DNA of 64,000 nt from Draconibacterium sp. (GCA_050179035.1 JBFXFM010000021.1:12-64011); one strand, 5' to 3'. Shown: positions 33,643 to 55,530, numbered from the stretch's first letter. Made by a program: numbers and translations. The notes: generated by a model not told the origin, from the sequence alone.

Positions 33643-33993
33643 TTATTTCGAGTTTTCCATTTTAATTTTAAGTTCGGTTTCTTTTGCATTAAGCGAAAGA
33701 ACCTGGGTAGCCGGTTTATATGAAATGTAACTTGTAACTACCTTGTACTCGCCTGGCTTCACCCCATTGAATGCAAAGTTTCCATCAAAGTCGGTGTAGG
33801 TTTTCAGGTCGGTACCTTCAATTTTTACTTCAACACCAGCTAGTGATTCGCCTGAGATTGCATCGGCAATTGAGCCTGCAAGAACAACAGTAGCTGCGTT
33901 ATCAACACTTGCCGGAGCTTTAGTTTCGTTTTCTTTGGCAGAAACTGCGATGGTGAGAACCAGTGCCAACATGCTAAAAATTATCTTTTTCAT
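33643..33993 (-). CDS. Stand-alone CarboxypepD_reg-like (TBDR N-terminal-extension) domain protein
   Basis: Signal peptide; GSIADAISGESLAGVEVKIEGT..TYTDFDGNF..SYISY; likely start 33993. Confidence 0.85.
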   Translation of the reverse strand: MKKIIFSMLALVLTIAVSAKENETKAPASVDNAATVVLAGSIADAISGESLAGVEVKIEGTDLKTYTDFDGNFAFNGVKPGEYKVVTSYISYKPATQVLSLNAKETELKIKMENSK

Positions 33994-34022
33994 TGCTTTA
34001 ATTTTTCTTCCATTATGCAACG

Positions 34023-34080
34023 TAAAAGTATGCCTACACTATTAAACCAGAATTACAGAAATATTACAGTTTTATTACAT
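34023..34080 (-). promoter_or_regulatory. Candidate Pho box (4 repeats, 11-bp period) + -7 element
   Basis: Plus strand from 34041: ATTAAACCAGA ATTACAGAAAT ATTACAGTTTT ATTACAT (TTA at 34042/53/64/75); TACTTTTA on the minus strand at 34023-34030. Confidence 0.7.
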
Positions 34081-37681: not shown

Positions 37682-40651
37682 TTATCTCACAATCATTTTG
37701 TTTACTGCTTTATTTTCACCGGCGTTGAGCTGGTAGAGATAAATACCTCTTTGCAAACCTGAAACATTAACCTTGTAAGTTCCTTTCTGCTGAGTTTCGC
37801 TTATCACCGATTTTACAATTTTACCTGTAACATCATAAACCATCAGGCTTACATTGGCCATTTCAGGAATGGTATATTCAATGGTTGTGGTTCCGTCAAA
37901 AGGATTCGGATAGTTTTGTTTCAATTCAAAACTGTTAATCCCCATTTCGTTAACCGAAACGTACAATTCGCCAAAATAGCCCATATTATCCAGAGCAGTC
38001 CACATTTTAGCCCAGTTTTCATGGCCAAACGCTCCTTTGTAAGCTGTTTCCTCTAATCCTGTGGTTACAAAAGCACCGGTAATCGGAGCTACATTTTCCC
38101 AGGCTGAACTTTGCGGATTCGGACGTGGGTCGAGTTTTCCATCGGCTTCGCGCGAAATTCCCGATATCATTGGGTTTGCTATGGTATTTGCGTTAGCAGT
38201 TAAGTGGTTAACAAGAAAAGCGCCTGTTACATCTTCGGCATCGCTTGTAACCTGAATCATTTTACCGGCAGCAAGTTCGTCGCCAGCACCAAAACCAAAC
38301 CAGATGTTATTTTTGAAAACGAGGTCGCCGTTTTCCATGTGTTTGCGTGAGTCGGTTCCTTTGTCGGCAGCGCGGTCTTCCACTTCAATAGCGCTGAAAG
38401 CAAATTCAGTAAAAATTGAGTTGGCATACATACCACCTGCTCCATCGCGCAACATTAAAGCCACGTCGCCTACATTTGAAGCGGTTCCCGGGCCAATGTA
38501 AGTAGCATTGAAAATTGTAGGTTTTGCAAATCTTGGGTTATCATCGGGGTGAGCGCCATCGTGTTCGCCACCTGAGCCTGCATCGTCAGTACCCTGAATT
38601 GCAAACCAGAACTGGCCACCGCCTCTCCATCCGTCGTCATAATCAAAAGCATCGTCGCCACAGAAAGCAGCAATGAGGTATTTTGTCATTACAGTACCAC
38701 CCCAGAATTCGAAACCATCATCAGAGTTGGCAAACACTTCCACGTTTTCGATTACGGTCTGGCTGCCAACACCGGCAACCGACAAACCGTTGATTTCGTT
38801 ACCTGGCGAGAGTTCAGCACCACCGTGGCGTATTGAAACATATTTGAAAACTCCTGTATTGTGAGTATCGTCGTCTCCGCCAAATTTGGCACGTTCTTCA
38901 CCAGCAGGGATACCTTCAATTGCAGATTCGGCAGCGGTGAACCCGATAACGCCTTTACCCAGAAGGATAACACCACCCCAAAGACCTCGGTCTTCGTGGG
39001 TTAAATCAGCAGGGTCGGTTAAATCATCATCTTCGGCAGTGAAGATAATCGGGAGTTCAGCAGTACCTTCGGCCATAATTTTGGCATCGCGTGTAATAAT
39101 CAGTGCCGAAGCATTGTCACCGGTTGTAGGTGTTGCTTTGGCTTTGATAACCGTTCCGGCATCAATTGTTAAAGTACCCGATTCGAGGAAAACAAAACCA
39201 TCGAGCAGGTAAGTTTTGTCTGCTGTCCAGTGTGCATCACCGGTTAAGGTAGCGTCGGTAACCAATACTTCAGTTCCGCCGGCAGAGAAATCAAGATCCC
39301 CGAAATAACCCATTTTATCAAGTGCTGTCCAACCAAGCGCCCAGTTGGTTGAGCCAAAGGCTCCCCTGTAACTTGTGCTCATTATATTTTCATTGTCTGA
39401 AGAAGCAGAGCCGCTCCATGCCGGACTGCCGGCTGCAAGTCTTGGGTCGAGCTGACCATTAGCTTCACGGCTGATTCCGCGGAATTTTGGGTTTGCTATG
39501 GTATTTGCGTTAGCAGTTAAGTGGTTAACAAGAAAAGCGCCTGTTACATCTTCGGCATCGCTTGTAACCTGAATCATTTTACCGGCAGCAAGTTCGTCGC
39601 CAGCACCAAAACCAAACCAGATGTTATTTTTGAAAACGAGGTCGCCGTTTTCCATGTGTTTGCGTGAGTCGGTTCCTTTGTCGGCAGCGCGGTCTTCCAC
39701 TTCAATAGCGCTGAAAGCAAATTCAGTAAAAATTGAGTTGGCATACATACCACCTGCTCCATCGCGCAACATTAAAGCCACGTCGCCTACATTTGAAGCG
39801 GTTCCCGGGCCAATGTAAGTAGCATTGAAAATTGTAGGTTTTGCAAATCTTGGGTTATCATCGGGGTGAGCGCCATCGTGTTCGCCACCTGAGCCTGCAT
39901 CGTCAGTACCCTGAATTGCAAACCAGAACTGGCCACCGCCTCTCCATCCGTCGTCATAATCAAAAGCATCGTCGCCACAGAAAGCAGCAATGAGGTATTT
40001 TGTCATTACAGTACCACCCCAGAATTCGAAACCATCATCAGAGTTGGCAAACACTTCCACGTTTTCGATTACGGTCTGGCTGCCAACACCGGCAACCGAC
40101 AAACCGTTGATTTCGTTACCTGGCGAGAGTTCAGCACCACCGTGGCGTATTGAAACATATTTGAAAACTCCTGTATTGTGAGTATCGTCGTCTCCGCCAA
40201 ATTTGGCACGTTCTTCACCAGCAGGGATACCTTCAATTGCAGATTCGGCAGCGGTGAACCCGATAACGCCTTTACCCAGAAGGATAACACCACCCCAAAG
40301 ACCTCGGTCTTCGTGGGTTAAATCAGCAGGGTCGGTTAAATCATCATCTTCGGCAGTGAAGATAATCGGGAGTTCAGCAGTACCTTCGGCCATAATTTTG
40401 GCATCGCGTGTAATAATCAGTGCCGAAGCATTGTCACCGGTTGTAGGTGTTGCTTTGGCTTTGATAACCGTTCCGGCATCAATTGTTAAAGTACCCGATT
40501 CGAGGAAAACAAAACCATCGAGCAGGTAAGTTTTGTCTGCTGTCCAGTGTGCATCACCGGTTAAGGTGGCATCGGTAACAGTTATTATGGTTTGTGCATT
40601 CATTGCAAAAGCCATAATAAGAAAGGAAATCATTAAAGTAAATTTTCTCAT
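37682..40651 (-). CDS. T9SS-secreted protein 1: two tandem beta-helix-like domains + type-A CTD
   Basis: 989 aa; signal peptide; duplicated ~439-aa unit (TLTIDAGT, NEINGLSVAGVGSQT, DDGFEFWGG, DDAFDYDDG); CTD QNYPNPF..YDVTGK..GIYLYQL..KMIVR. Confidence 0.92.
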   Translation of the reverse strand: MRKFTLMISFLIMAFAMNAQTIITVTDATLTGDAHWTADKTYLLDGFVFLESGTLTIDAGTVIKAKATPTTGDNASALIITRDAKIMAEGTAELPIIFTAEDDDLTDPADLTHEDRGLWGGVILLGKGVIGFTAAESAIEGIPAGEERAKFGGDDDTHNTGVFKYVSIRHGGAELSPGNEINGLSVAGVGSQTVIENVEVFANSDDGFEFWGGTVMTKYLIAAFCGDDAFDYDDGWRGGGQFWFAIQGTDDAGSGGEHDGAHPDDNPRFAKPTIFNATYIGPGTASNVGDVALMLRDGAGGMYANSIFTEFAFSAIEVEDRAADKGTDSRKHMENGDLVFKNNIWFGFGAGDELAAGKMIQVTSDAEDVTGAFLVNHLTANANTIANPKFRGISREANGQLDPRLAAGSPAWSGSASSDNENIMSTSYRGAFGSTNWALGWTALDKMGYFGDLDFSAGGTEVLVTDATLTGDAHWTADKTYLLDGFVFLESGTLTIDAGTVIKAKATPTTGDNASALIITRDAKIMAEGTAELPIIFTAEDDDLTDPADLTHEDRGLWGGVILLGKGVIGFTAAESAIEGIPAGEERAKFGGDDDTHNTGVFKYVSIRHGGAELSPGNEINGLSVAGVGSQTVIENVEVFANSDDGFEFWGGTVMTKYLIAAFCGDDAFDYDDGWRGGGQFWFAIQGTDDAGSGGEHDGAHPDDNPRFAKPTIFNATYIGPGTASNVGDVALMLRDGAGGMYANSIFTEFAFSAIEVEDRAADKGTDSRKHMENGDLVFKNNIWFGFGAGDELAAGKMIQVTSDAEDVTGAFLVNHLTANANTIANPMISGISREADGKLDPRPNPQSSAWENVAPITGAFVTTGLEETAYKGAFGHENWAKMWTALDNMGYFGELYVSVNEMGINSFELKQNYPNPFDGTTTIEYTIPEMANVSLMVYDVTGKIVKSVISETQQKGTYKVNVSGLQRGIYLYQLNAGENKAVNKMIVR
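38170..39250. repeat. Copy B of the 1081-bp intragenic direct repeat
   Basis: Offset 1317 bp from copy A; six pairs of shadow ORFs in different frames translate identically; boundaries read by eye. Confidence 0.92.
39487..40567. repeat. Copy A of the 1081-bp intragenic direct repeat
   Basis: Matches 38170-39250; first mismatches at 39486/38169 and 40568/39251. Confidence 0.92.
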
Positions 40652-40692: not shown

Positions 40693-40750
40693 CGAAAAAA
40701 AGGTATTAATATTACAAGGGGGTTAATATTAATTTAAGGACTTGTTACAT
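40693..40750 (-). promoter_or_regulatory. Candidate Pho box (4 repeats, 11-bp period) for the T9SS-1/TBDR-1 operon
   Basis: Plus strand from 40711: ATTACAAGGGG GTTAATATTAA TTTAAGGACTT GTTACAT (TTA at 40712/23/34/45); degenerate -7 element TTTTTTCG. Confidence 0.65.
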
Positions 40751-40890: not shown

Positions 40891-42651
40891 CTACCTTTTT
40901 GCCAGCGTAAACAGGAACTCGACACCACCGGTTTCGCGGTTACGCACCGAGATATCGCCTTTGTGCAACTGAACTGCGTTTTTTACGATAGCCAGCCCCA
41001 GTCCGGTTCCTCCGGCTTCGCGGGTGCGGCCATGGTCAACCCGGTAAAACCTTTCAAAAATCCGCGAAAGGTGTTCTTCCGGAATTCCGGCGCCCGTGTC
41101 GGAATACGAGAAATAGTAGTATTTATCGTCTTCGTGATAAACTTTTATCTGTATAGAAATTCCTTTTCCACCGTAATTGATCGAGTTTTCCACAAGGTTT
41201 TGGAAAACCGAGAAAAGCAGCGATTCGTTACCATTTATAATTGTATTTTCAGGGATTTCGGTTGTAAATCTGATGTTTTTTTCATCAATCCGGTTGGCAA
41301 AATTCTGGTAAACTTCTTCGATGAGGGTTTTCAAATCAGTTAGTTTAAACCTGAAAAGTTCTCCCGCGTCTTCAATGTTTGTCAGCAACGAAACATCGTT
41401 TATCAGGTGGGTGAGGCGCTGCGACTGCAAGTATGCTTTTTCAAGAAAATAGCGTTGTTTTTCAGCCGAAACAGGCCTGTTTTCCAATATTGTCTCAAGA
41501 TATCCTTTAATTGACGCCAACGGAGTTTTCAACTCGTGGGCAATGTTCGAAGTGAGTTGCTGTTTCATCAGCCTTCGCTTTTCGAGCCGGGTGATATCTG
41601 TAATCACGACTTCGAAACTAAGGTCGGGGAAAATGATGCTTTGTACTTTTAGAAATTTTTCGCCTTTTGAAATAGTAAACTCCGACTGTTGCAGATTTTC
41701 TGACGAACTGTTGGTAATTGACGGATTTTCTACAAACCGGGTTAGTTCGGCAAACTCTTCCATTTTGAAAATGTGCTCGGGTACAGTAACTTTTTTGTCG
41801 GATATCGAATTGAGGTACTGAATAAAATAGCGGTTCGAAAGTGTTTTTTGTTTTCCGGGCGAAAAGAAAGCGATGCCTTCGTTTAGCGCATTCAGATGGC
41901 TTAGCAGTTTTTCGCGTTCGGTGGCCAACTCGTCCTTGGTTTTTTTCAGGTCACTATAAATAGCAATAATTTGCGAACCAATCGTTCCCAGTTCGTTACC
42001 CGGAAATTCGGTAACCGTGTCAATCTGTTCTTTTTTACCAGCTTTTACTGCAAAATCGCGGAGCTTTGTAATGGCGTCGGCCATACGCGAAGTAATGAAA
42101 AACAATACAATACCAATAATGGAAAATGCAGCTACAATAAAAAAGATGTAATATCGCTCCGTCTTCAGAAAATTCTGGACCTGAACGTCGTAAACAACCG
42201 CTGTACGTACAAAAAAGTGACTGTATTTTTTGGCGTAATAGTAATAAACTTCATTTGTTGTATCCGAGAGGCGGATATTGGCTCCTGATTTGTGTTTAAA
42301 GGCTTTGTCAATTTCAGGTCGGTGGAGGTGGTTTTCCATGGTTCGGTAATTCTCAACCGAACTGTCGAAAATTACTTCGCCATTCAGCATAATAACAGTA
42401 ATTCTCAGGTGTTCCTGCGGAATTATTTCCTTTAATCCCGTAATGCGACTCATTTGGTTTTGTCTAACCAAATCGTTCTTTTCAATAAATAAAGCGGTGA
42501 TTTCGGTAATATTATCGAGCGTATTTTCCAACTGCCGGGTGCGGAATTTTTTCTCGCGTTCGTACTGAAATGCCAGCACGGATGCCGTAAACAAAAAGAA
42601 AACCACAATGTAGTAGAGAAAAATTTTTCCCCTGAAGGAATTTGAATTCAC
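40891..42651 (-). CDS. PhoR-like sensor histidine kinase
   Basis: 586 aa; two TMs; TSNIAHELKTPLASIKGYLET, NLVENSINY, DTGAGIP..RIFERFYRVD..R.REAGGTGLGL. Confidence 0.9.
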   Translation of the reverse strand: MNSNSFRGKIFLYYIVVFFLFTASVLAFQYEREKKFRTRQLENTLDNITEITALFIEKNDLVRQNQMSRITGLKEIIPQEHLRITVIMLNGEVIFDSSVENYRTMENHLHRPEIDKAFKHKSGANIRLSDTTNEVYYYYAKKYSHFFVRTAVVYDVQVQNFLKTERYYIFFIVAAFSIIGIVLFFITSRMADAITKLRDFAVKAGKKEQIDTVTEFPGNELGTIGSQIIAIYSDLKKTKDELATEREKLLSHLNALNEGIAFFSPGKQKTLSNRYFIQYLNSISDKKVTVPEHIFKMEEFAELTRFVENPSITNSSSENLQQSEFTISKGEKFLKVQSIIFPDLSFEVVITDITRLEKRRLMKQQLTSNIAHELKTPLASIKGYLETILENRPVSAEKQRYFLEKAYLQSQRLTHLINDVSLLTNIEDAGELFRFKLTDLKTLIEEVYQNFANRIDEKNIRFTTEIPENTIINGNESLLFSVFQNLVENSINYGGKGISIQIKVYHEDDKYYYFSYSDTGAGIPEEHLSRIFERFYRVDHGRTREAGGTGLGLAIVKNAVQLHKGDISVRNRETGGVEFLFTLAKR

Positions 42652-42666
42652 ACTTGTATTTTTGAA

Positions 42667-43353
42667 CTATTCAATATTTACAAAGCTGTAGCCGTACCCC
42701 GATTTGCCTTTTATATTATCGCTGTACTGGCCTATTTTCCTGCGCAAACGGGCAATATTCACATCCACATTGCGGTCGGTAACAATCACATCGTAATTCC
42801 AGATGCTTTTCAGAATTTCCTCGCGGCTGATGTATTTTCCCATATTTTTTACAAGCAATACAAGAATTTCGTACTCTTTGCGGGTGAGGTTAACTGGTAT
42901 GCCTTCAATCAGTGTTTCCTTTTTATCAGGGTTGATTTTCAGGTCGCGGTAAACCATCTGGTTACTTTCTTTTTCGGGTTTGGTACCTCTTTTCAAGATC
43001 GCTTTTATTCGGGCAATAATTTCCTTTATTGAAAAGGGTTTCGAGATGTAATCGTCGGCACCCACATTAAAACCGGTGAGAATGTCGTTTTCTTCGGTTT
43101 TGGCGGTAAGAAAAATAATAGGGATTTCAAGTTTTTTTTCTTTCCGTATCACATTGGCAACCTTGAAACCAGAGATTCCACCCATCATTACATCAAGCAG
43201 AATGAGGTCGAATTCCTCAAGTGGTTTTTTCAGTGCATCTTCGCCAGAGTGGGCAATATCAATGTCGAAACCTTCGCTTTCAAGATTAAATTCAAGAATT
43301 TCGCAAAGGTCTTTTTCGTCGTCAACGATCAGTATTTTTTTCTTCGATTCCAT
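42667..43353 (-). CDS. PhoB/PhoP-like OmpR-family response regulator
   Basis: 228 aa; IVDDE, LLDVMM, FLTAK, DDYISKPF; wHTH LTRKEYEIL..RNVDVNIARLRRKI. Confidence 0.92.
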   Translation of the reverse strand: MESKKKILIVDDEKDLCEILEFNLESEGFDIDIAHSGEDALKKPLEEFDLILLDVMMGGISGFKVANVIRKEKKLEIPIIFLTAKTEENDILTGFNVGADDYISKPFSIKEIIARIKAILKRGTKPEKESNQMVYRDLKINPDKKETLIEGIPVNLTRKEYEILVLLVKNMGKYISREEILKSIWNYDVIVTDRNVDVNIARLRRKIGQYSDNIKGKSGYGYSFVNIE

Positions 43354-43490: not shown

Positions 43491-43555
43491 TATAAGTAGA
43501 GCAAAGTTGTTACAATCCGGTCACTAAATTATTAAATATTATTAATTTATATTTG
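43491..43555. promoter_or_regulatory. Divergent phoBR/porin promoter region with a candidate Pho box
   Basis: GTTACAATCCG GTCACTAAATT ATTAAAT from 43509 (11-bp period); perfect TATATTTG on the plus strand at 43548-43555; weak TACTTATA on the minus strand at 43491-43498. Confidence 0.55.
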
Positions 43556-45897: not shown

Positions 45898-46308
45898 TCA
45901 ATACACCGGAAAAAACCCGCTCACTCTTGATTTTACATTTTGCACACTGGCCAACATCTGCCGGGCATTCAGGTTAAAATATTGCTGGGCTTCGGTGTTG
46001 TTGTAAAATTTGCCAAATTTTCTGAGTGGTTTTACGCGCTGTTCAAGTGTATCGGCTAATTCCATAAACTCTTCAATGCCAACTTCCTGGGTTTCGAGCG
46101 TATAAATTACATCGGTTTCGTAATCGTAAGTAAAGTCGGCATGTAACGCCAGAACCCATTCCTGTGTTGTATCATCCTCGTTTTCACTTCTGAATTGGGT
46201 ATAACAAACAAGCATTCGGCCATCGGGCATTCCGAAAAAACTTACAGGCAAAAACGTCTGAAAACAGGTGTTATTCGATTTGTATATTAAACGTGATTTT
46301 GTTGACAT
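45898..46308 (-). CDS. Hypothetical cytoplasmic protein, paralog of 53189-53563
   Basis: MSTKSRLIYKSNNTCFQTFLPVSFFGMPDG; likely start 46308, preceded by AAAGGAGG. Confidence 0.8.
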   Translation of the reverse strand: MSTKSRLIYKSNNTCFQTFLPVSFFGMPDGRMLVCYTQFRSENEDDTTQEWVLALHADFTYDYETDVIYTLETQEVGIEEFMELADTLEQRVKPLRKFGKFYNNTEAQQYFNLNARQMLASVQNVKSRVSGFFPVY

Positions 46309-46352
46309 GGCGCCTCCTTTTTTTAATTTGAGCAAATTACACCGAATGATTT

Positions 46353-46410
46353 CAAAAGCAGCGAAAATCAGATTAATGTTTGGTAAACAATGGGTTAAAA
46401 AAATGTTACG
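46353..46410 (-). promoter_or_regulatory. Candidate Pho box for the 45898-46308 gene
   Basis: ATTAATGTTTG GTAAACAATGG GTTAAAAAAAT GTTACG from 46372; TGCTTTTG -7 element on the minus strand at 46353-46360. Confidence 0.55.
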
Positions 46411-46513
46411 TAAGCAAAGGGAAGGAATGTTGTAATTGTTGTCATTGTTGTTGTAGGATTACTGAAATTCAGGAGCTATGGGTTACCATTCCTTCTTCAG
46501 AACACAGCTCTTT

Positions 46514-46553
46514 GGGGGCTTTTTTATATTAGCCCCGGTGCTTTAGCCCGGGG
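46514..46553. repeat. REP-like GC-rich palindromes
   Basis: GGGGCT-TTTTTATATT-AGCCCC overlapping CCCCGGTGCTTTAGCCCGGGG. Confidence 0.55.
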
Positions 46554-46719
46554 ATCTGGCGCACCTCTCATAATCTGAAAGTAGTTTGAAATACAGGTGC
46601 TGACAACCGGTTTTTTCAGATTTACAAGTTGAGGCAGGATGTTCAAAAATCTAAGGCAAAACTTCAGCCTAAATCAGGTGAATGATTGTAAACCGTTTTT
46701 TGTATTTTTAAGAAAAAAA

Positions 46720-47256
46720 ATGATGAGACTTTTATCCTTGCTTTTCATTATAATTCTGGCCACCGGTTGCCAAACCGAAAACAGAAAGGCTGAACCCTCG
46801 CAAAAACGAAGCCACCCGAGCCATCGGTACAATTATGTAACTGTCGATACAACAACATTGAATTATTTCGAAACCGACTACCTGCCGGTTTACTCCGATA
46901 TTTATTATGAGAATGGCACACAGCGGTTCCCGATTACAGCCACTGTGAGTTTGCGCAACACTTCGCTTACCGATTCGGCGTATGTACTTTCGGCCCGATA
47001 TTACGACTCGTATGGTAAAATGCTTCACGTTTATATCGATTCCACCTTGTTGCTGTCGCCACTTGAGTCGGTTGAACTGGTAGTTGAAGAAGGTGAAAAA
47101 GCAGGTGGAGCCGGCGCTAATTTTATCATCGAATGGGCGGCTGCCAAATACACCAACCAGATGCTGATTCAATCGGTAATGATTAGCACGTACGGGCAGC
47201 AGGGCGTTTCATTTCTTTCGGAAGCGAAGGTTATTCAACGGAAAAACCGGGAATGA
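46720..47256 (+). CDS. DUF3124 lipoprotein
   Basis: Lipobox ATGC; YLPVYSDIY, TVSLRNT, RYYDSYG, GGAGANFIIEW, IQSVMI. Confidence 0.85.
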   Translation: MMRLLSLLFIIILATGCQTENRKAEPSQKRSHPSHRYNYVTVDTTTLNYFETDYLPVYSDIYYENGTQRFPITATVSLRNTSLTDSAYVLSARYYDSYGKMLHVYIDSTLLLSPLESVELVVEEGEKAGGAGANFIIEWAAAKYTNQMLIQSVMISTYGQQGVSFLSEAKVIQRKNRE

Positions 47257-47259
47257 TTT

Positions 47260-48393
47260 TTATTGTTCCAGATTCAACACTTTTGCAATTTCTGCCCACG
47301 AAATGTATTTGTAGTTCTGGCTTTTCTTTTTCCTTCCGTCGTAATTAAAACCATCCTGCACCACCAGCATTCCCTGCGGAAATCCGGGCAAAGCAACCGT
47401 GGTAATATCCAATCCGTCGGTTTCTTCAACACCATCAACAACTCCATCAGTAATCCTGAAACTGCCCAGATATTTGTTTTCTCCCTGCCGTTCGAAAACT
47501 GCGTACGAAAAGTTTCCCTGCGATGAGGCTACCAGGTAGCCATTTAGACTGTCGGTTGCATAAATCGCCAGTCCTTCAATATCGTATTTTATATTCAGAT
47601 TTTCTTCGGAGCTTTTTTGTATGAATTTCCCCTCGGTTGAACCCTCGGGTTCGGCGTCAAATTTCCAAATTCCGGCCTGTTCTTCACCGATGTAAAGGAT
47701 TCCGGTTTCGTCGTCGGCTACCATTCCTTCGGTTTGGGTGCCAATTTTCAGTGAGCGAACCAGTTTTGCATCAACTTTATTTTCGGCAGCAAAAAGTTCG
47801 TATTGTTCCACTTCGCCCGATTTGCCGTTTACAAAAACATAAAACAGCCCGGTTTTTTTACTTCGGTACATGCACAAACCATACACTTCGTCGCTCATGG
47901 CCGATTTGATAATACGGTTGTGTACCGAGTCGAGCCCACCATTTTCAACTATTCTGAAAAGTGAAACCGATTGCATGGTACGGTTGCTGGCAGCGAGAAT
48001 ATCGATGGTGTCGCCATTCAGCGGAAAACCGTAACGCAGGTCGCAATTGTTCATATCGCCGGTGGCGTAATAGTTGAGTTGTTTTCCGGTTAAATCGTAA
48101 GTTGCGAGTCCGCCTTTTTTATCGGTCCCGATAATTACTGATTTTTCAGGGTTTTGAGGATGAATCCAAATTGCCGGGTCATCAGCCGAATCGTCGTTTT
48201 TTCCGCGCGGTGTTGGTTCGGTTTCAATACTTGCGGCAACCAGATTCTTAATGTGTTCGCCTGCTTTGCGCGAGCCTTCGCCAGGGCGGTTACACGAATT
48301 AAATGTTATCAAAACAAACAGCCCGATAAACAGGCTGGTTGTTCCAGGGAATATTTTCATTTCTTTCATCGGTATTTTTGAATCAATTTTCAT
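47260..48393 (-). CDS. Beta-propeller phytase (3-phytase), lipoprotein
   Basis: DSADDPAIWIHP, IIGTDKKGGL, MNNCDLR, YGLCMY, TQTEGMVAD, YIGEE..GIWK, DIEGL, ETDGLD, VVQDG; lipobox FNSC; the true start may lie ~33 bp inside the ORF. Confidence 0.93.
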   Translation of the reverse strand: MKIDSKIPMKEMKIFPGTTSLFIGLFVLITFNSCNRPGEGSRKAGEHIKNLVAASIETEPTPRGKNDDSADDPAIWIHPQNPEKSVIIGTDKKGGLATYDLTGKQLNYYATGDMNNCDLRYGFPLNGDTIDILAASNRTMQSVSLFRIVENGGLDSVHNRIIKSAMSDEVYGLCMYRSKKTGLFYVFVNGKSGEVEQYELFAAENKVDAKLVRSLKIGTQTEGMVADDETGILYIGEEQAGIWKFDAEPEGSTEGKFIQKSSEENLNIKYDIEGLAIYATDSLNGYLVASSQGNFSYAVFERQGENKYLGSFRITDGVVDGVEETDGLDITTVALPGFPQGMLVVQDGFNYDGRKKKSQNYKYISWAEIAKVLNLEQ

Positions 48394-48400
48394 AAGTATT

Positions 48401-51274
48401 TTAAAAATTGAGTTTTAAACCAACCCGTGCCCACCAGGAGTAATATTCCTGTTGCAAAAGTTTATCGGGCGTACCCAGGTAGTATTTTAACGGGGCGTTT
48501 GTGAGATTTATTACATCGACAAAAACATTCAGATTTTTTGTGATTGAATAATTCGTTGTAAAATCGAAATGCCAGGCTTTATCGTAGTATTCATCCAAAT
48601 CGCTGTCGGCACCCAGTTCGTGTAAAAAGGCATCGTGATAATTGGCCGTAATTTTTGCATAAAACTTTTTGGTTTCGTAGAAAAGTGCAAGATTGGCTGT
48701 GTGTTTTGCCTGCCCCGGAAGCATTATTTTTTCCTTTTCGCCGTTTTCGTCAAAAAATACGCTCAAATCATCTTCACCAAAAATCACAACAGCGTCGCTG
48801 TAATTGGCCGGGTAGCGCTGGCTGATGTAAGCTTCTGAGAATGTGTAAGTATAGTTGGTATAAATTCCAAAGTTTTTCAGAAAGTTATCGAAAAAGAAAA
48901 GTTTCGACTGGTATTGCAACTCGGCGCCATATACAAAAGCATCGCGTCCGTTGGCTGCAATGGTAATTTCGTCGAGCGAGGTTCCGGTTGAAGCGTCGCT
49001 TTGGTGTGCAAACCGTTTAAAATAAAAGATAAAGTCGTCAATCTGTTTATAGAAAAAGCCCCCTGAAAGTAAGCCTTGTTCGCCAAAATAGGTTTCGCCA
49101 AGCAAATCGAAATTGATGGCTGTCGGGTATTTCAGGTCGGGGTTTCCAAAGGTGTATTGGTCGTTGTCTTTCTCTTCCTTGTAAGGCAACACATCTTTAA
49201 AATTGGGGCGCGAGTAGGTTCGTGTAACAGCAGCCCTGAAGTTTGTATTCTTATTCAAACTATATCTTACCTGCAATTGCGGTAGCAGAAACTGGTGCGA
49301 ACGCTGGTCGTTCAATGTGTCGAGCCGTACAAATTTCTTCCCGTCGGCAATTACATTGTGTCCGGTGTAGTTGATGTTGGTTTTTTCGAACCTCAACCCA
49401 CCCAACAACATCAGGTTGTTGAAGTTGTGTTTTATCATTCCGTAAGCCGCATAAATATCTTCGTTTGCGGTATAGTCAGCACCGTAAGATTCCTGTCGGG
49501 TTCTGGTGGGATCATACACAAACTGGTGCCTGTTGTATTCGTAAAAATCGCGCACTTTTTCGGGCGAAGGCATAGCTTCAATTACATAACCATGATTCAG
49601 CAGGTTGGGGTCGGTAAAACCATCACTCACACCGTAAAGCGTAAGCGGTTCAGCCACGCCGGGGTACGGATTTACTAATTTTGAATAAGGATATCCACCG
49701 TAAACCTGCGAGTTGTCGTCGCGGCTTTTATCTTTCATCCGTACTTTTCCCCCAAATTTGAAACTTCCGTTGCGGTAAGGTATTTCAAGATTCAGTTTTG
49801 CTGTTACATTGATGTCTTTGATGATGTTGTTTTCGAGCTGTAGTCCGTCAAATTCATATTTTGCATAATCAGTAACCAACTGCTCATCGCCTTCGGTAGG
49901 GTAACTAATGGTGGGCCAGTTGGGGTCGGTTAAATCAAATTTCATCATCACGCCGTGCCCCGGACTGTCGAACCCGGTTTCGAGACGGGTGGGGTCTTTT
50001 TCCGATGAATAGGCATAAGCAATTTCGTAATCGATTTTTGTTTTTCCCAGGTTGTGCATACCGCCGAGGTTCAGGGTGTAAATCTCCTGAACCTGCCGTG
50101 TATCGCGAATATCGTGCGCCACCGAGCAGTCGCGGTAAAGTGTTTCACTGATGGCATCGGAGGTTTCGTAAGTTATTCTGCGCCGCAGTTCCTGGTCGGT
50201 AAAACTGTTAAACATTCCGCGAAGGTAAACCGATGAACCTTCGTTAAAGATGTAGTCCATGGTTGTGCTCACGCCAATACGGGTGCGCGTAATATCGTAA
50301 TGTCGAAGTTCCATTTTCTTGTACTGCACCTTGTAATTGTCGATGCTGTCGCCCTGACTTCCCCAAAACGGACCTTTTATATAATTGAATTCCATGTTAT
50401 CGGAGCCCAGGTTGTTTTTGTAATAACTGCTGTTGAGGTAAAATCCGAATTTGCCGTAACGTGCGCCGTATGAAAACTGCACCTGGTAGTTTTCGGTTTG
50501 TCTCAGGTTGTTGTACCCCCCTGAAATTGCAGCCGAAATATCTGGTTTCTGGTCGAGCGCTTTTTTGGTAACAATGTTCACATTTCCGCCAATTCCATCA
50601 GCGTCCATATCGGGGGTTAGCACTTTGGTAATTTCAACAAATTCAATCTGGTCAGCCGAAATTACATCGAGACCAACATAACGCACATCGCCTTCGGGCG
50701 AAGGAATTTGTTCGCCGTTGATGTTAAAGTTGGTAAGCTCCGGCGGGGTTCCGCGGAGTTGTACAAAACGACCTTCTCCCTGGTCGCGCTGCAAGGTAAT
50801 TCCGGGGATTCGCTGAATAACTTCAGCCGCATTCATGTCAGGGAATTTCTCGATTTGTTCAGAAGAAACTATGTTTTTGATGTTTTCAGCTAATTTCTGG
50901 TCGAGCAGGGCTTTTTGCTGACCGCGTGCCAGCGCAGTTATATTAATTTGACCGATTTCCTGTGTTGACGGGTCGAGTGCGATTTTCAGGTTTTTAAGCA
51001 GAGGTTCTGAAAAACTTACCGGAACCACTTTCGTTTGATAACCCATAAACGAAACCAGCAGCGTTACCTGTCTGGATTTTATTCCTGTTAATTCGAAAAA
51101 ACCGTTGTTGTCGGTGATGGTTCCGTGGGTTGTATTTTCAACAACAATCCCTGCACCGGGCAGGGCTTCGTTGGTGGTGGCATCGGTAATAATTCCCGAA
51201 ACCGAATAATTCTGGGCAGCTAATTGTGTGGTTAGAATAAATGAGAAAAGGAAGACAAGGATTTTAGGCTTCAT
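48401..51274 (-). CDS. TonB-dependent receptor (TBDR-2, phytase-associated type), no adjacent SusD
   Basis: 957 aa; NTE; plug PDMNAAEVIQRIPGI.LQRDQGEGRFVQLRG..DADGIGGNVN; C-terminal GLKLNF. Confidence 0.95.
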   Translation of the reverse strand: MKPKILVFLFSFILTTQLAAQNYSVSGIITDATTNEALPGAGIVVENTTHGTITDNNGFFELTGIKSRQVTLLVSFMGYQTKVVPVSFSEPLLKNLKIALDPSTQEIGQINITALARGQQKALLDQKLAENIKNIVSSEQIEKFPDMNAAEVIQRIPGITLQRDQGEGRFVQLRGTPPELTNFNINGEQIPSPEGDVRYVGLDVISADQIEFVEITKVLTPDMDADGIGGNVNIVTKKALDQKPDISAAISGGYNNLRQTENYQVQFSYGARYGKFGFYLNSSYYKNNLGSDNMEFNYIKGPFWGSQGDSIDNYKVQYKKMELRHYDITRTRIGVSTTMDYIFNEGSSVYLRGMFNSFTDQELRRRITYETSDAISETLYRDCSVAHDIRDTRQVQEIYTLNLGGMHNLGKTKIDYEIAYAYSSEKDPTRLETGFDSPGHGVMMKFDLTDPNWPTISYPTEGDEQLVTDYAKYEFDGLQLENNIIKDINVTAKLNLEIPYRNGSFKFGGKVRMKDKSRDDNSQVYGGYPYSKLVNPYPGVAEPLTLYGVSDGFTDPNLLNHGYVIEAMPSPEKVRDFYEYNRHQFVYDPTRTRQESYGADYTANEDIYAAYGMIKHNFNNLMLLGGLRFEKTNINYTGHNVIADGKKFVRLDTLNDQRSHQFLLPQLQVRYSLNKNTNFRAAVTRTYSRPNFKDVLPYKEEKDNDQYTFGNPDLKYPTAINFDLLGETYFGEQGLLSGGFFYKQIDDFIFYFKRFAHQSDASTGTSLDEITIAANGRDAFVYGAELQYQSKLFFFDNFLKNFGIYTNYTYTFSEAYISQRYPANYSDAVVIFGEDDLSVFFDENGEKEKIMLPGQAKHTANLALFYETKKFYAKITANYHDAFLHELGADSDLDEYYDKAWHFDFTTNYSITKNLNVFVDVINLTNAPLKYYLGTPDKLLQQEYYSWWARVGLKLNF

Positions 51275-51318
51275 CGTTGATTTTTTATTTTCAGGAACGA
51301 TTGCTTATCGTAAAAATT

Positions 51319-51352
51319 CACCCTGAACAAAGCTGGAAGCCCGTTCAGGGTG
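51319..51352 (-). terminator. Intra-operon hairpin between T9SS protein 2 and TBDR-2
   Basis: CACCCTGAAC..GTTCAGGGTG. Confidence 0.65.
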
Positions 51353-51374
51353 ATATATTAAATCAATCAGGTTA

Positions 51375-53009
51375 CTAATTAATAATGATTTTCCGGGTTA
51401 CTGAACCGGTTTCGCCAGTAAAACGAATAAAGAAAATGCCTTTGTTTATTGCACTTACATCGATGGTTTGCCTTGTCGATTCAACCAACCCGCGCTGCAC
51501 GGTTTTGCCTGTAATATCGTGAATGCTGAATGTTTCAAAACGGTTTTCTGACAAATCAAAATTCAGTTTTCCGTTGTTCACAGGATTTGGATAAACGTTA
51601 ACCACGGGTTCGGCGCCGATTTGTTCTTTAACCGCATTTGTGCCCGATTTGTAATAAACCACTAATTGCGGAACACGCTCGGGGTGGTTCTGTCCGTCGC
51701 CGCCATCTTCCGGGTCGGCAATATTTTCGAACGATTCCAACTCGCGTGCATTTTCAGCTTCGCTCACGCCCTGGTTTTCACCTTCCATGATAAAAGCTAT
51801 GGCATTTCCCGAATTCCAGCCCTGTAATCCGATGATTTCCTGAACCACCGATTTGATATCCGCAGTGCGGTGTTTTGTGTAAAGTCCCCATTCTTCGGCA
51901 ACTTCCCAGCGTACCGAGGCTGAAGTTTTTGGTCTGTCGGTAATTAAAGCTTCCATGCTAAATGTTTCGGGGTTAGCATTTTTTTCGCCACGGATGGTGA
52001 TGTTGGCTTCATCAGTTGCCGATTTTCCTTCGTGCGAGTGGATTACAATATATGCCGAATCGATGGTAGCATCAGCAGGAATGGTGATTCCGCGGAAACG
52101 TAACCCAAGGTTTACAATGTTGATTGTACTGGCATCCACATATTCATACCCAATATCAAGGTCGTCATCATACAAATCGTCCATTTCATCGTTCTCCTGT
52201 TCGGCATCGTCTGATGATACATTGATAACCACACCTTCTTCCATGATGGTGTCGGTTTTCTGAATATAAACTTCCAGTTTTTCGTTGTCGGTTGTGCCTG
52301 CCGGTTCAGAATAATACACCACCAATTGCGGAACGCGCTCGGGGTGGTTCTGTCCGTCGCCTCCATCTTCGGGGTCGGCAATATTTTCGAACGATTCAAG
52401 TTCGCGTGCATTTTCGGCTTCGCTCACACCCTGGTTTTCGCCTTCAAGAATAAATGAGATGGCATTTCCTGAATTCCATCCGCTCAAACCAATTATTTCC
52501 TGAACCACCGATTTGATATCAGGTGTGCGGTGTTTTGTGTAAAGTCCCCATTCTTCGGCAATTTCCCAGCGTACCGAGGCTGAAGTTTTTGGCCGGTCGG
52601 TAATAAGCGCTTCCATAGTAAATGTTTCGGGGTTGGCATTTTTTTCGCCTTTTATTGTGATGTTGGCCACATCGGTGGCCGATTTTCCTTCGTGAGAGTG
52701 GATTACAATAAATGCCGAATCGATTGTTGCACCTGCCGGAATTGTAATTCCAAGGAAACGCATCCCAAGGTTTACAATGTTTATTTCGCTTGCATCAACA
52801 TATTCATAACCAATGTCGAGGTCGTCGTCAAACAAGTCGTCCATTGCATCGTTTTCCTGCTCTGCATCGTCAGACGAAACATTGATTACCACACCTTCTT
52901 CCATAATGGTGTCGGTTTTCTGAATGTAAACTTCCAGTTTCTTGTTTTGCGCAAAAACTGAAGTGGTAAAAAACAAAAGGAATAAGGAATAAAGTAGAGT
53001 TGATTTCAT
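51375..53009 (-). CDS. T9SS-secreted protein 2: two tandem acidic ~220-aa domains + type-A CTD
   Basis: 544 aa; signal peptide; units offset by 660 bp (SSDDAEQEND..DDDLDIG..LG.RF.GITIP..ATIDSA..WNSGNAI); CTD VYPNPV..DITGK..KIIIN. Confidence 0.9.
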   Translation of the reverse strand: MKSTLLYSLFLLFFTTSVFAQNKKLEVYIQKTDTIMEEGVVINVSSDDAEQENDAMDDLFDDDLDIGYEYVDASEINIVNLGMRFLGITIPAGATIDSAFIVIHSHEGKSATDVANITIKGEKNANPETFTMEALITDRPKTSASVRWEIAEEWGLYTKHRTPDIKSVVQEIIGLSGWNSGNAISFILEGENQGVSEAENARELESFENIADPEDGGDGQNHPERVPQLVVYYSEPAGTTDNEKLEVYIQKTDTIMEEGVVINVSSDDAEQENDEMDDLYDDDLDIGYEYVDASTINIVNLGLRFRGITIPADATIDSAYIVIHSHEGKSATDEANITIRGEKNANPETFSMEALITDRPKTSASVRWEVAEEWGLYTKHRTADIKSVVQEIIGLQGWNSGNAIAFIMEGENQGVSEAENARELESFENIADPEDGGDGQNHPERVPQLVVYYKSGTNAVKEQIGAEPVVNVYPNPVNNGKLNFDLSENRFETFSIHDITGKTVQRGLVESTRQTIDVSAINKGIFFIRFTGETGSVTRKIIIN

Positions 53010-53034
53010 AGTTTTTGATTTTGCAATTTTGATG

Positions 53035-53092
53035 CAAGATTAACAAGTGGCATTTAAACGCAGGTTACAATCAGATTAAGTGAATGTTACAG
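53035..53092 (-). promoter_or_regulatory. Candidate Pho box (4 repeats, 11-bp period) for the T9SS-2/TBDR-2/phytase operon
   Basis: TTTAAACGCAG GTTACAATCAG ATTAAGTGAAT GTTACAG from 53053; TAATCTTG -7 element on the minus strand at 53035-53042. Confidence 0.7.
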
Positions 53093-53188
53093 AAACATAA
53101 TTTCTGATTACAACTTTTTGTAAGAAATCGGTCACCAGGATTTTCACCCAGGTGAAAAGATTTTGCTCAAACAATGATTTGAATTTGT

Positions 53189-53563
53189 TTACGCAAATAC
53201 TGTCTCTTTTCTGCTTCCGGCCATTCGGTTAATATGTACCTGCGCTTCAGCATAACTATCGATATTGCGCAGCGATTTGGTAATTTTTATGCGGGTTTCG
53301 GGCCTGTCAACCATTTCCCTGAAATCGTCGAGGCAAATTTCGATACTGCTGTACCTGTAAATCTGGCCGGTTTCAAAATCATAGCTAAAATCTTCAAGTT
53401 CAGCAAAAACAAATTCAAGCCCTGTATTATGAAAGTTGATTTCGTAAAAACGGGCATAAACAAGCGATATACTTCCATCGGGCATTCCGTAAAAATAAAC
53501 GGGGAGTGCTGTATGAAAATAGGTCATGTTCGACTTATAAATTAAAACGGGTTTTGTGCTCAT
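53189..53563 (-). CDS. Hypothetical cytoplasmic protein, paralog of 45898-46308
   Basis: MSTKPVLIYKSNMTYFHTALPVYFYGMPDG; last gene of the plcP-like/GT operon; start 53563 or 53569. Confidence 0.8.
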   Translation of the reverse strand: MSTKPVLIYKSNMTYFHTALPVYFYGMPDGSISLVYARFYEINFHNTGLEFVFAELEDFSYDFETGQIYRYSSIEICLDDFREMVDRPETRIKITKSLRNIDSYAEAQVHINRMAGSRKETVFA

Positions 53564-53580
53564 ATTCATTCAATTAAAGG

Positions 53581-54567
53581 TTAAATGGTGTTACGCATAA
53601 TTATTTTTTCGATGATTTCGTTGGTTCTGTCGGGGAAATCAATTTTCAGCGGCTGTATGTTTTCGAGCCAAAGCCTGATTTTGGCTACATCTTCAGAGAG
53701 GTCGTTTAAAACCTGAACTCCCATTTCGCGCAGGAAAGCTGCATTGCATTGTTGTTCGTACTGGTTTTTCATCGGAATCACACAAAGTTTTTTCCCCATG
53801 TGAAGGGCTTCGGCCGGGGTTTCAAAACCGGCATTACAAAGAATCCCGCTGCAACTGATAAACGACTCGTGAAATTTTTCGATTGAAACGGGTTGAAAAT
53901 GAATATTTTGTTTGCTGTATGATTTTTGGCTGTGTTTCGAAAAAACTTCCCACTGTACCTGTGGAAATGCGCCTAAAACCCTTTCAATCTCTTCGTTACT
54001 GTACGATGGCAAATAAACCGAGTAGTGGTTGTTTGTGGAGTGATTTGCGTTTCGGATTGCAGTTCGGATTACCGGGCTGAAATTGAAGCTGTCGAGCTGA
54101 TTAAAATGAAACCCATATTTTAGCGAAACCGGCGCATAATTTCGGAGAATAAATTTTCCCAGTGCATCATGTTTTTCAGGTTTTGGAGTGGCGTTGTGCA
54201 AAACCGCATTCTGATGACTAAGCCCGATGCACTTTTTGCCCTTAATTTTGCAGGCCCAAGCCGAAACAGGTTCAAAATCGCTGATAACCAGGTCGTATTT
54301 TTGTACTGGCAATTTTATCAAATCAACAAGAAACCTGGGTAACCTTGACTTTGCAATTGTTTTTTTTAAATCAACACCGCCGGTTGTACCAAAAATAAAA
54401 CTCACGCCATAAAACCTGTATTTTACTTCGAACGGGAGTTGAATATCACCCTGAATTCCACTGACGAGCACGTCAGTTTCGGCCATTTTCTGCAGAACAG
54501 GAACGATTTCGGTTGCCCTCGCCAAATGCCCGTTGCCGGTTCCCTGAATTGCGTACAATACTTTCAT
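53581..54567 (-). CDS. GT-B glycosyltransferase (MJ1255/VC2487-like, related to GT28/MGDG synthase)
   Basis: MKVLYAIQGTGNGHLARA, VISDFEPVSAWA, NAGFETPAEAL..GKKLCVIPMKNQYEQ. Confidence 0.88.
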   Translation of the reverse strand: MKVLYAIQGTGNGHLARATEIVPVLQKMAETDVLVSGIQGDIQLPFEVKYRFYGVSFIFGTTGGVDLKKTIAKSRLPRFLVDLIKLPVQKYDLVISDFEPVSAWACKIKGKKCIGLSHQNAVLHNATPKPEKHDALGKFILRNYAPVSLKYGFHFNQLDSFNFSPVIRTAIRNANHSTNNHYSVYLPSYSNEEIERVLGAFPQVQWEVFSKHSQKSYSKQNIHFQPVSIEKFHESFISCSGILCNAGFETPAEALHMGKKLCVIPMKNQYEQQCNAAFLREMGVQVLNDLSEDVAKIRLWLENIQPLKIDFPDRTNEIIEKIIMRNTI

Positions 54568-54570
54568 TTT

Positions 54571-55407
54571 TTACAATATGTTGGTAAAAACAAGTTCTTT
54601 AATCAACGATTGGTATAACTGTCGTCCTTCGGGAATATCAGGTTCGTCATTGGGAAATTCGTCGTCGTTTTCGGTGTGGTAAAAAAGTTTCCATTCTTTT
54701 GAATCGTATTCGGCTGCGGTAAAATTTTCAACCCAGTCGCCGCAATTCAGGTATTTAATGGTTTTGCCATTTATAATCAGCTCTTTTTCTTTTGGGATGT
54801 GGGTGTGCCCGCAAATCACCGATTGATAGCCCTGCGTTTCGGCCACTTCGCCAATTTTCTTCTCAAAAACCGAAGGTTCGGGTTTTTCGCGGAGCCAACG
54901 TTTTTTAATACTCCGGTAAAAGATGATTTCGTTTTTTCCAAAAAGCCTTAAAAACGGCTGAAGTGCGTTGTTCAGCCACGAAAGCAATCCGTACGAAGCC
55001 GCCCCGATTTTGGCTAACCATTTTGTTTCGTGAATCACAAGGTCGAAAATATCGCCATGAAAAATCCAGGTCTTCTGGCCATCAAGGTCCAATACCAACT
55101 GGTTTACAATGCGCAGGTTTCCAATCTGAATTTTTTCAAACTTCCGTAAAAATTCATCGTGATTACCTGTAATGTAATAAACCTGAACCCCTCTTTCCAT
55201 CATTTTAATCAGCTGCCTGATTACTTTGAGGTGGGCTTTGGGGAAAAAATTTCGCGAAAACCGCCACGAATCAATGATGTCGCCGTTTAAGACAAGGGTT
55301 TTGGGTTGTATCGATTTCAGGTATTTTAAAACCTTTTTGGGGTGACAGGCGTGTGTGGCAAGATGAATATCGGATATTACAGCCACTTCCGGTTCTCTTA
55401 TCTTCAT
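54571..55407 (-). CDS. PlcP/LpxH-like metallophosphoesterase
   Basis: VISDIHL, NGDIIDSW, GNHDE, FHGD.FD.V....KWLA, CGHTH, YLNCGDWVE; likely start 55407. Confidence 0.88.
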   Translation of the reverse strand: MKIREPEVAVISDIHLATHACHPKKVLKYLKSIQPKTLVLNGDIIDSWRFSRNFFPKAHLKVIRQLIKMMERGVQVYYITGNHDEFLRKFEKIQIGNLRIVNQLVLDLDGQKTWIFHGDIFDLVIHETKWLAKIGAASYGLLSWLNNALQPFLRLFGKNEIIFYRSIKKRWLREKPEPSVFEKKIGEVAETQGYQSVICGHTHIPKEKELIINGKTIKYLNCGDWVENFTAAEYDSKEWKLFYHTENDDEFPNDEPDIPEGRQLYQSLIKELVFTNIL

Positions 55408-55428
55408 AGTTAATTCACTATAATGCTG

Positions 55429-55486
55429 CAAATTAGGCTGATTGTTATTAATCTACAGTTACAGTTCAGTTACGATAAAAATAAAG
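55429..55486 (-). promoter_or_regulatory. Candidate Pho box for the plcP-like/GT/hypothetical operon
   Basis: ATTAATCTACA GTTACAGTTCA GTTACGATAAA AATAAAG from 55447; CTAATTTG -7 element on the minus strand at 55429-55436. Confidence 0.65.
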
Positions 55487-55530
55487 TTAAAGGCAGCGAA
55501 GATTCAGATTTTACAGTTTCATGTTTTATT

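Follow-up and report, generated by a model that had tools for sequence, protein, structure and literature searches.

What do two small, paralogous proteins do in a phosphate-starvation (Pho) gene island of Draconibacterium sp., and what controls them? The genes in question, open reading frames A and B (ORF A and ORF B; Table 1), lie in a stretch of 64,000 nucleotides (GCA_050179035.1 JBFXFM010000021.1:12-64011), referred to below as the window. In sediments, soils and the rhizosphere, the scavenging of phosphorus by Bacteroidota is of ecological importance. The Bacteroidota phosphorus-scavenging regulon includes many uncharacterised, highly induced genes (PMC8115612). Here we infer from sequence that ORF A and ORF B are induced by PhoB on phosphate limitation and are almost certainly part of the low-phosphate response. 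Our favoured reading, to which we give a probability of about 0.55 as a whole, is that they form a PhoB-regulated pair of paralogous binding proteins, the B type acting with lipid remodelling by a PlcP-like enzyme and a glycosyltransferase (GT), and the A type with another partner.

Two paralogous genes in a phosphate island

The two predicted proteins align without gaps over 115 amino acids (aa) at 43% identity (BLASTP, E 4e-29), and have in common the strings MSTK..LIYKSN.T.F.T.LPV.F.GMPDG, DF.YD.ET..IY, F.E..D and EAQ. A hidden Markov model (HMM) of the family picks up just these two copies in the window. No signal peptide or transmembrane segment is found in either protein, the maximum 19-residue Kyte-Doolittle mean being 0.84 in A and 0.83 in B, with no N-terminal hydrophobic core; a neighbouring secreted protein served as the positive control for this check. 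The first-pass annotation of this DNA had described the two genes as paralogs at these coordinates, with the same shared motifs and with no signal peptide or membrane segment, and all of this was recovered.

Codon differences against close orthologs show an excess of synonymous changes (synonymous to nonsynonymous 20:11, 7:3, 21:6 and 7:4), which indicates that both ORFs are translated and under purifying selection. The view that they are spurious ORFs, or non-functional remnants merely located in the island, has nothing for it beyond missing annotation and expression data. Purifying selection, about 85 homolog clusters, structure predictions that are confident and agree with each other, and a promoter layout that is conserved all speak against it, and we regard it as refuted, with practically no probability left to it.

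The longest reading frame of ORF A opens at TTG 46335, and its orthologs begin at the MSTK/MKxK position, here the ATG at 46308. For ORF B an alternative start at 53563 gives 124 aa; orthologs align with this position, which is the probable true start. ORF A is monocistronic and convergent with a Beta_helix_4 gene ending at 45897. ORF B, in its longer form, begins 11 nucleotides (nt) past the GT stop codon as the last gene of the PlcP-like/GT unit and, because a box (see below) heads the next unit downstream, it ends its own unit.

The island itself extends over 31.6-55.4 kb of the window. It encodes PHO4, DUF47/PhoU_div, PhoR, PhoB, porin-like and Beta_helix_4 proteins, a DUF3124 lipoprotein and a beta-propeller phytase, together with two TonB receptors, each paired with a protein secreted by the type IX secretion system (T9SS), and the unit of PlcP-like gene, GT gene and ORF B.

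PhoB-type boxes and putative promoter elements

Reading of the island's intergenic regions brought out [G/T]TAA-type hexamers at an 11-bp period, here called the box. The pattern KTAAHH-N5-KTAAHH-N5-KTAAHH occurs seven times in the window against 0.09 expected, and none of 100 shuffles reached this number. All seven matches, like the island genes they precede, are on the minus strand. They fall into four upstream regions, 34040-34078, 40710-40748, 53052-53090 and 55446-55473, and the region at 34040-34078 was not used in deriving the pattern. If one mismatch is tolerated, the search also picks up a site ahead of ORF A (46371-46409) and one ahead of phoB (43508-43535). The PhoB response regulator encoded in the island is the presumed binder of these boxes.

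To remove circularity, a weight matrix was trained only on the loci of other species. Scanned over both strands of the whole window, this matrix scored highest at the ORF A site (62 bp upstream of the gene), and of its ten best matches eight lay upstream of island genes. As one of 30 mononucleotide shuffles equalled the top score, the score is weak by itself, and its weight rests on the positional agreement. The four hexamers stand where a candidate box had been noted in the first-pass annotation (46372), and its proposals that each gene belongs to a Pho-box unit and that ORF B closes the plcP-like/GT operon also hold: ORF A has a box of its own, and ORF B is reached through the boxed operon.

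In most copies of the family, a GTAnnTTT[G/C] element resembling the Bacteroidota -7 motif lies ~30 nt past the box and ~25 nt before the ATG, and the element GTAATTTG at ORF A is a putative -7 promoter element of this type. At the Pho boxes of E. coli, PhoB acts from the -33 region and upstream, and by analogy the layout suggests that PhoB may act from such a position here. A Shine-Dalgarno-like AAGGAGG before ORF A was considered as a further conserved element and rejected, being absent from orthologs. Scans for sigma-70 promoters and intrinsic terminators gave no more matches than shuffles and are uninformative for a Bacteroidota genome.

The box also bears a likeness to operators known elsewhere. 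The phosphate-starvation regulator PhoP of Riemerella anatipestifer has a DNA affinity purification sequencing motif with the conserved core TTTAACA, which resembles the direct repeat bound by E. coli ArcA and contains the TTAACA hexamer of the window boxes (PMC9603813). That motif comes from a different order (Flavobacteriales), the likeness concerns the core, and PhoB binding in Draconibacterium is only predicted.

Two details of spacing were seen in addition. The intergenic region between ORF A and the DUF3124 gene is ~330 bp long, versus ~190-215 bp at orthologous loci, and the extra DNA (window 46420-46638) contains G+C-rich, hairpin-forming sequences, e.g. GGGGCTTTTTTATATTAGCCCCGG around 46506-46540. 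The longest frame of the PlcP-like gene opens at TTG 55431; as its orthologs have 278 aa, the true start is likely ATG 55407, and with this start a -7-like TAATTTGC follows the final hexamer of the box after only ~10 nt, a shorter gap than at the family genes.

Table 1. Genes and predicted regulatory elements of the Pho island discussed in the text (window coordinates)
Feature	Position	Strand	Description
ORF A	45898..46308	-	136 aa from ATG; isoelectric point 4.9; A-type member of an unclassified small alpha/beta family
ORF B	53189..53569	-	126 aa; B-type member; third gene of the PlcP-like/GT unit
Box of ORF A	46371..46409	-	GTAACA-5-TTAACC-5-TTTACC-5-TTAATC; 3' end 62 bp before ATG
Putative -7-type promoter element of ORF A	46333..46340	-	GTAATTTG; ~30 nt downstream of box, ~25 nt upstream of ATG
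Box of PlcP-GT-ORF B unit	55446..55490	-	GTAACT-5-GTAACT-5-TTAATA and weaker hexamers upstream
Box of next unit downstream of ORF B	53052..53090	-	Unit of T9SS protein, TonB receptor and phytase
PlcP-like metallophosphoesterase	54571..55431	-	LpxH-like, under the LpxH cut-off
Glycosyltransferase (GT)	53581..54567	-	Glyco_trans_1_3 / MJ1255 family, weak Glyco_tran_28_C; presumed glycolipid synthase of the lipid-remodelling pair
PhoB response regulator	42667..43353	-	NF053854 (Bacteroidota PhoB equivalog), 316.9 bits vs cut-off 270
PhoR sensor kinase	40891..42651	-	NF053855 (Bacteroidota PhoR equivalog), 673 bits vs cut-off 500
DUF3124 lipoprotein gene	46639..47256	+	Divergent from ORF A; pairing recurs in at least 6 lineages

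Conservation of the box and the neighbourhood in close relatives

About 25 loci encoding close homologs were compared. Every such locus with more than ~3 kb of context holds several Pho-island genes (PHO4, PstSCA, PhoBR, PlcP/GT, TonB/phytase or DUF3124) beside the family gene, and many have two or three family copies. The box scores at least 17/18 in 22 of 35 family copies, and in 19 of these 22 it ends 56-77 bp before the start codon; the background is 3.5% of random 200-bp windows, taken from the same, already box-rich loci. Among the 13 copies below 17/18, seven lie 11-15 bp behind GT, inside the PlcP-GT unit. A box upstream of that unit is seen in the window and in loci L001, L003 and L009, the units whose upstream DNA was fetched, and the copies behind GT in L009 and L012 each have a further, dedicated box. 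Judged by this sequence context, the Prolixibacteraceae-type clade of ORF A and ORF B is phosphate-specific.

The A and B types have different linkages. A-type genes are divergent from DUF3124 or lie upstream of a porin-like gene and pstSCA, and B-type genes are found directly behind GT, directly before PlcP, or behind a long PHO4 transporter gene. At least 10 distinct loci have a family gene directly behind GT or directly before PlcP, and this position of the B type points to the step at which phospholipids would be exchanged for glycolipids. The other B-type copies, and all A-type copies, are located elsewhere in the island.

Some of these placements could also be expected of a signalling connector that binds PhoR, PhoB, PhoU/DUF47 or the phosphate transporter and so tunes the Pho signal by feedback or feed-forward. 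The proteins are small, soluble and under predicted PhoB-box control, the A type is acidic, like many protein-binding modulators, and copies directly follow the long PHO4 gene (four lineages) or adjoin phoBR or pstSCA (other lineages). No copy consistently adjoins phoBR, however, and as DUF47 is present in the window there is no regulatory gap to fill. A regulator would also have no obvious need for two or three paralogs, and remote relatives occur without Pho genes. We consider a connector unlikely.

A new protein family

No Pfam or NCBIfam model reaches its cut-off for these proteins, the best being DUF1657 (14.3 bits vs 27.7) and SctR/EscR (13.2 vs 208.6), and other matches below E 0.01 are due to chance only. 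When 60 aligned members were scanned singly against Pfam and NCBIfam, no family was matched by more than four of them. The names 'EscR' and DUF1657 were accordingly rejected as sub-threshold chance matches; 'EscR', assigned by the Joint Genome Institute (JGI) and the only public name for the proteins, traces to a spurious TIGR01102 match. PHROGs gave no match for the family, the sole match in PADLOC (Avs3b, E 0.038) is non-significant, and a family-profile search of PDB sequences returned nothing significant (best E 0.41).

AlphaFold2, supplied with the family alignment, gave confident models of ORF B (predicted local distance difference test [pLDDT] 87.8, predicted template modelling score [pTM] 0.83) and ORF A (pLDDT 86.9, pTM 0.80). 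In the topology shared by the two models, seven to eight strands make up a mostly antiparallel sheet, strand 7 is followed by a short helix, and after this come a further strand and a long C-terminal helix. Foldseek against PDB returned no significant neighbour of either model (best E 0.8, template modelling [TM] score 0.28-0.31), and a BFVD search with the ORF B model gave none either (best E 0.2, TM 0.35). A known fold was taken to be one with Foldseek E <= 0.001 or TM >= 0.5 to PDB or BFVD, or a profile match to a PDB sequence, and the search produced none.

Both Foldseek lists for PDB are headed by Leviviricetes (MS2/GA/Qbeta) coat proteins, which are of similar size and have a similar order of elements, namely an N-terminal hairpin, a beta-meander and C-terminal helices. 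A levivirus coat-like fold was nevertheless rejected, as the matches are at chance level (E 0.8-3, TM 0.24-0.31, root-mean-square deviation 9-12 A) and the present family differs by an additional helix-strand unit ahead of its final helix. The predicted fold is thus provisionally new, judged against PDB and BFVD. Since there is no detectable relative of established function or structure, the family is rated new in kind at the protein-family level; the newness is at that level, and no new mechanism is demonstrated. The first-pass annotation had recognised no family and had recommended the AlphaFold and Foldseek comparison, and the outcome across Pfam, NCBIfam, PHROGs, PADLOC, PDB sequences and Foldseek agrees with it. 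Together with the adjacent PhoB and PhoR, the conserved box and the Pho neighbourhoods, this upholds its central proposal of a new small-protein family tied to the phosphorus-starvation response.

Searched by word index, 5.8 billion clusters yielded 39 clusters of the B type and 22 of the A type. When 1.84 billion representatives were searched exhaustively with a profile, 85 passed E <= 0.001, among which P0128 (579 aa) was rejected as a repeat-protein false positive. Named sources are nearly all Bacteroidota (Draconibacterium, Maribellus, Prolixibacteraceae, Bacteroidales and one metagenome-assembled genome [MAG] labelled Flavobacterium), and the sole source outside this phylum is L026, a 3.6-kb contig of a MAG labelled Candidatus Moraniibacteriota. 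The window is Draconibacterium orientale-like, with 98% protein identity to L010. Searches of viral contigs, phage genomes and plasmids turned up no family member. A phage or mobile origin of the distant members, suggested by a series of small genes in L029 that lack annotation, is unsupported by PHROGs and by the viral, phage and plasmid collections.

Near-invariant positions of the family are K12, S13, T16, T20, D60, D88, R93 and Q110; there are no conserved Cys or His, and invariant polar residues are few. The conserved Lys, Ser, Thr, Arg and Asp might bind phosphate, polyphosphate or a phospho-headgroup released by PlcP, so that the proteins would buffer or sense this ligand. These eight residues are of the kinds that coordinate phosphoryl groups, and the genes stand in a Pho context. 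The same residues are, however, kept in remote relatives outside Pho loci, and the proteins have no similarity to any known phosphate-binding fold, which makes a ligand binder or sensor very unlikely.

The only fusion seen is P0116 (346 aa, from a 1.6-kb JGI contig), in which the family domain is followed by FRTKPP and a 220-residue C-terminal region without a Pfam match, containing a stretch that looks like a helix-turn-helix (LTEIAKQLGIEENSVYNAV). This protein could be a genuine fusion, or else stem from an assembly or frameshift artefact.

Remote relatives outside phosphate loci

Remote relatives (25-45% identity) lie outside phosphate loci and lack a box, and PlcP and GT are absent from their surroundings altogether. 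In the clade defined by the A4 alignment (L030-L045, L047 and L048), and for P0098, P0103 and P0118, there is no Pho homolog within 6-8 kb and no box. Neighbours of the remote relatives include MacB/FtsX permeases (in three contexts), QueA, a ComM-like ATPase and a Band 7 protein, among others. P0072, from an organism of 30% GC, has a perfect box at -58. A crude nearest-label count over 72 further representatives placed 42 in the Pho-context clade and 13 in the non-Pho clade, with 17 undecided. As the remote relatives lack Pho genes and box, the family as a whole is not phosphate-specific. The first-pass annotation had held that its proposal would fail if homologs occurred mostly outside phosphate loci; close homologs stay within such loci, in line with the proposal, and the remote relatives, outside and unboxed, go against it in part.

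The three non-Pho contexts in which a remote member adjoins a MacB_PCD/FtsX-type ABC permease gene (L027, L032 and L036) are different from one another. This adjacency could be chance, such permeases being many in Bacteroidota.

A fairly close relative, P0068 (profile E 2.5e-33; L050 8001-8426), lies inside an SOS-type mutagenesis cluster. The order of genes there (L050:2518-11230) is LexA-like, ImuB-like, DnaE2 and P0068, followed by convergent SRAP/YedK, UmuC and UmuD. The lexA/imuB intergenic region of L050 has a repeated TTGACnATATTATnGTCA-like palindrome, unlike the published Bacteroidota LexA motifs. Control of P0068 by LexA was considered and not supported, there being no CTAA-N5-TTAG or GGA-N5-TTC site upstream; without a published Bacteroidota LexA motif in this position, the SOS link stays one of adjacency in one lineage.

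Many distant members (P0098, P0105, P0108, P0118, P0132 and P0139) end in a conserved basic C-terminal tail, [M/I]IRTKPPKGK, which is sometimes repeated. Three consecutive small proteins in L029:737-2187 end in MIRTK[P/S]PK, one of which (1183-1635) is not recognised by the family HMM, and the sharing of the tail with such a protein suggests a common C-terminal docking or sorting tag.

Such contexts raise the question of whether the proteins are a general stress brake, i.e. a generic stress-induced binder acting on nucleic-acid transactions or growth (replication, translation, division), a module that lineages have put under different stress regulons, Pho here and possibly SOS elsewhere. The position of P0068 between LexA-like/ImuB/DnaE2 and SRAP/UmuC/UmuD, the Lys/Arg-rich tails of the distant members and the varied housekeeping contexts of the remote relatives would all fit. 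The SOS context is nevertheless that of a single lineage with no published Bacteroidota LexA motif upstream, the ORF A and ORF B proteins are acidic and have no basic tail, and Foldseek against PDB gave no match to a nucleic-acid-binding fold, so that we find this account improbable. A related and broader conception, in our view doubtful though conceivable, is that the family constitutes a new fold used as a portable stress adaptor of Bacteroidota. It would have been placed in the PhoB regulon in Prolixibacteraceae (with two or three paralogs per island) and in an SOS mutagenesis cassette in another lineage, and by binding a conserved cellular target it would redirect the metabolism of membranes or nucleic acids in starved or damaged cells, the distant members adding the [M/I]IRTKPPKGK tail as a docking tag that also occurs on a non-homologous neighbour.

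Proposed function in phosphate limitation

The favoured reading, a PhoB-regulated pair of binding proteins, can be set out as follows. In Draconibacterium and other Prolixibacteraceae, this family of small (~125-140 aa), soluble, cytoplasmic alpha/beta proteins would have undergone duplication and come under the control of PhoB. On exhaustion of phosphate, PhoR would phosphorylate PhoB, which would bind the boxes, and both proteins would be made. With low confidence at each of these steps, we suggest that both act as stoichiometric binding proteins rather than enzymes, that the B type cooperates with the PlcP-like phospholipase and the GT in replacing phospholipids by glycolipids, e.g. as a regulatory or stabilising subunit, and that the acidic A type is an independently transcribed copy acting on another phosphate-starvation partner.

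A non-catalytic binding role is favoured because no Cys or His is conserved and only a few polar residues are invariant, and because the family comes as multiple paralogs with dedicated promoters. The extra box behind GT in L009 and L012 argues in the same direction, as if more of the protein were needed than of the enzymes. The first-pass annotation had offered three functional guesses, a modulator of PhoR/PhoB, a phosphate-ligand sensor and a lipid-remodelling accessory; only the last appears to have positive genomic support, and for the B type only.

Several points weigh against this reading. Binding by PhoB is deduced from a motif, and the pattern was first defined in the same window, the matrix trained on other loci being the control. 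The lipid link cannot explain the A type, nor the many B-type copies behind PHO4 or beside DUF3124/Pst, and the conserved K, S, T, T, D, D, R and Q could form a ligand or catalytic site. As remote relatives have neither Pho gene nor box, and one is found in an SOS cassette, the ancestral function would not have been phosphate-specific. RNA runs carrying ORF A or ORF B sequences were sought and none was found, and a literature search for a Draconibacterium transcriptome under phosphate limitation likewise found none.

Comparison with known systems

The PlcP-like/GT unit resembles the PlcP-Agt lipid-remodelling operon (PMC4796936) and the PlcP and GT of Flavobacterium (PMC8115612), in that a PlcP/LpxH-type metallophosphoesterase is followed by a GT within a Pho cluster, with a Pho box ahead. 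Neither paper describes a small cytoplasmic third gene tightly behind the GT. The GT of the window differs in belonging to the Glyco_trans_1_3/MJ1255 family, and the PlcP and GT activities are here predicted from sequence. A very similar cluster in F. johnsoniae (GT, OprP, PhoR, PhoB, TonB-dependent transporter and beta-helix lipoprotein) is strongly induced by phosphate depletion, and the GT induced there at low phosphate, Fjoh_0541, is of family pf04101 (PMC8115612).

PsiF, PhoH, PsiE and PhoU/DUF47 are likewise under PhoB control with an accessory or unclear role, and DUF47 is encoded in the same island. The present proteins, however, have no similarity to the Pfam or NCBIfam models of any of these, and while PhoU/DUF47 is all-helical, the present family is predicted to consist of a beta-sheet and two helices. 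The IraP-type anti-adaptors and two-component connectors of E. coli are small and soluble, are produced when phosphate runs short and exert their effect solely through binding to another protein. A small binder of this type, made in starvation and acting on another protein, is in our view the most likely working model for ORF A and ORF B, although there is no homology to IraP, and the predicted fold and the regulator are different.

These results add a previously unnamed cytoplasmic component to the Pho island, a candidate extra gene to the PlcP-GT lipid-remodelling unit, and a concrete layout of PhoB boxes and promoters in Prolixibacteraceae, from which the remaining members of the regulon can be predicted. 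If the proteins do regulate lipid remodelling or Pho signalling, they would represent a new layer of control in a well-studied stress response. If the fold is truly new, the proteins are a clean target for structural genomics, being small, soluble and confidently predicted. The impact is limited by the narrow taxonomic range and by functions that derive from sequence and models.

Other features of the island

A gene at 33643-34020 (minus strand), ahead of the DUF47-PHO4 pair, was considered as a third paralog behind another box and rejected. It encodes a small secreted protein with a signal peptide and a CarboxypepD_reg-like domain, resembling the N-terminus of a TonB receptor without the barrel, and has its own four-hexamer PhoB-type box (34040-34078) just upstream.

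Both T9SS-secreted proteins of the island are without a Pfam domain except for the sorting tail, and both contain a large internal direct duplication. In the protein at 37682-40651 (minus strand) the period is 1317 nt with 94% identity (38126-38425 vs 39443-39742), and in that at 51375-53009 (minus strand) it is 660 nt with 88% identity (51652-51951 vs 52312-52611).

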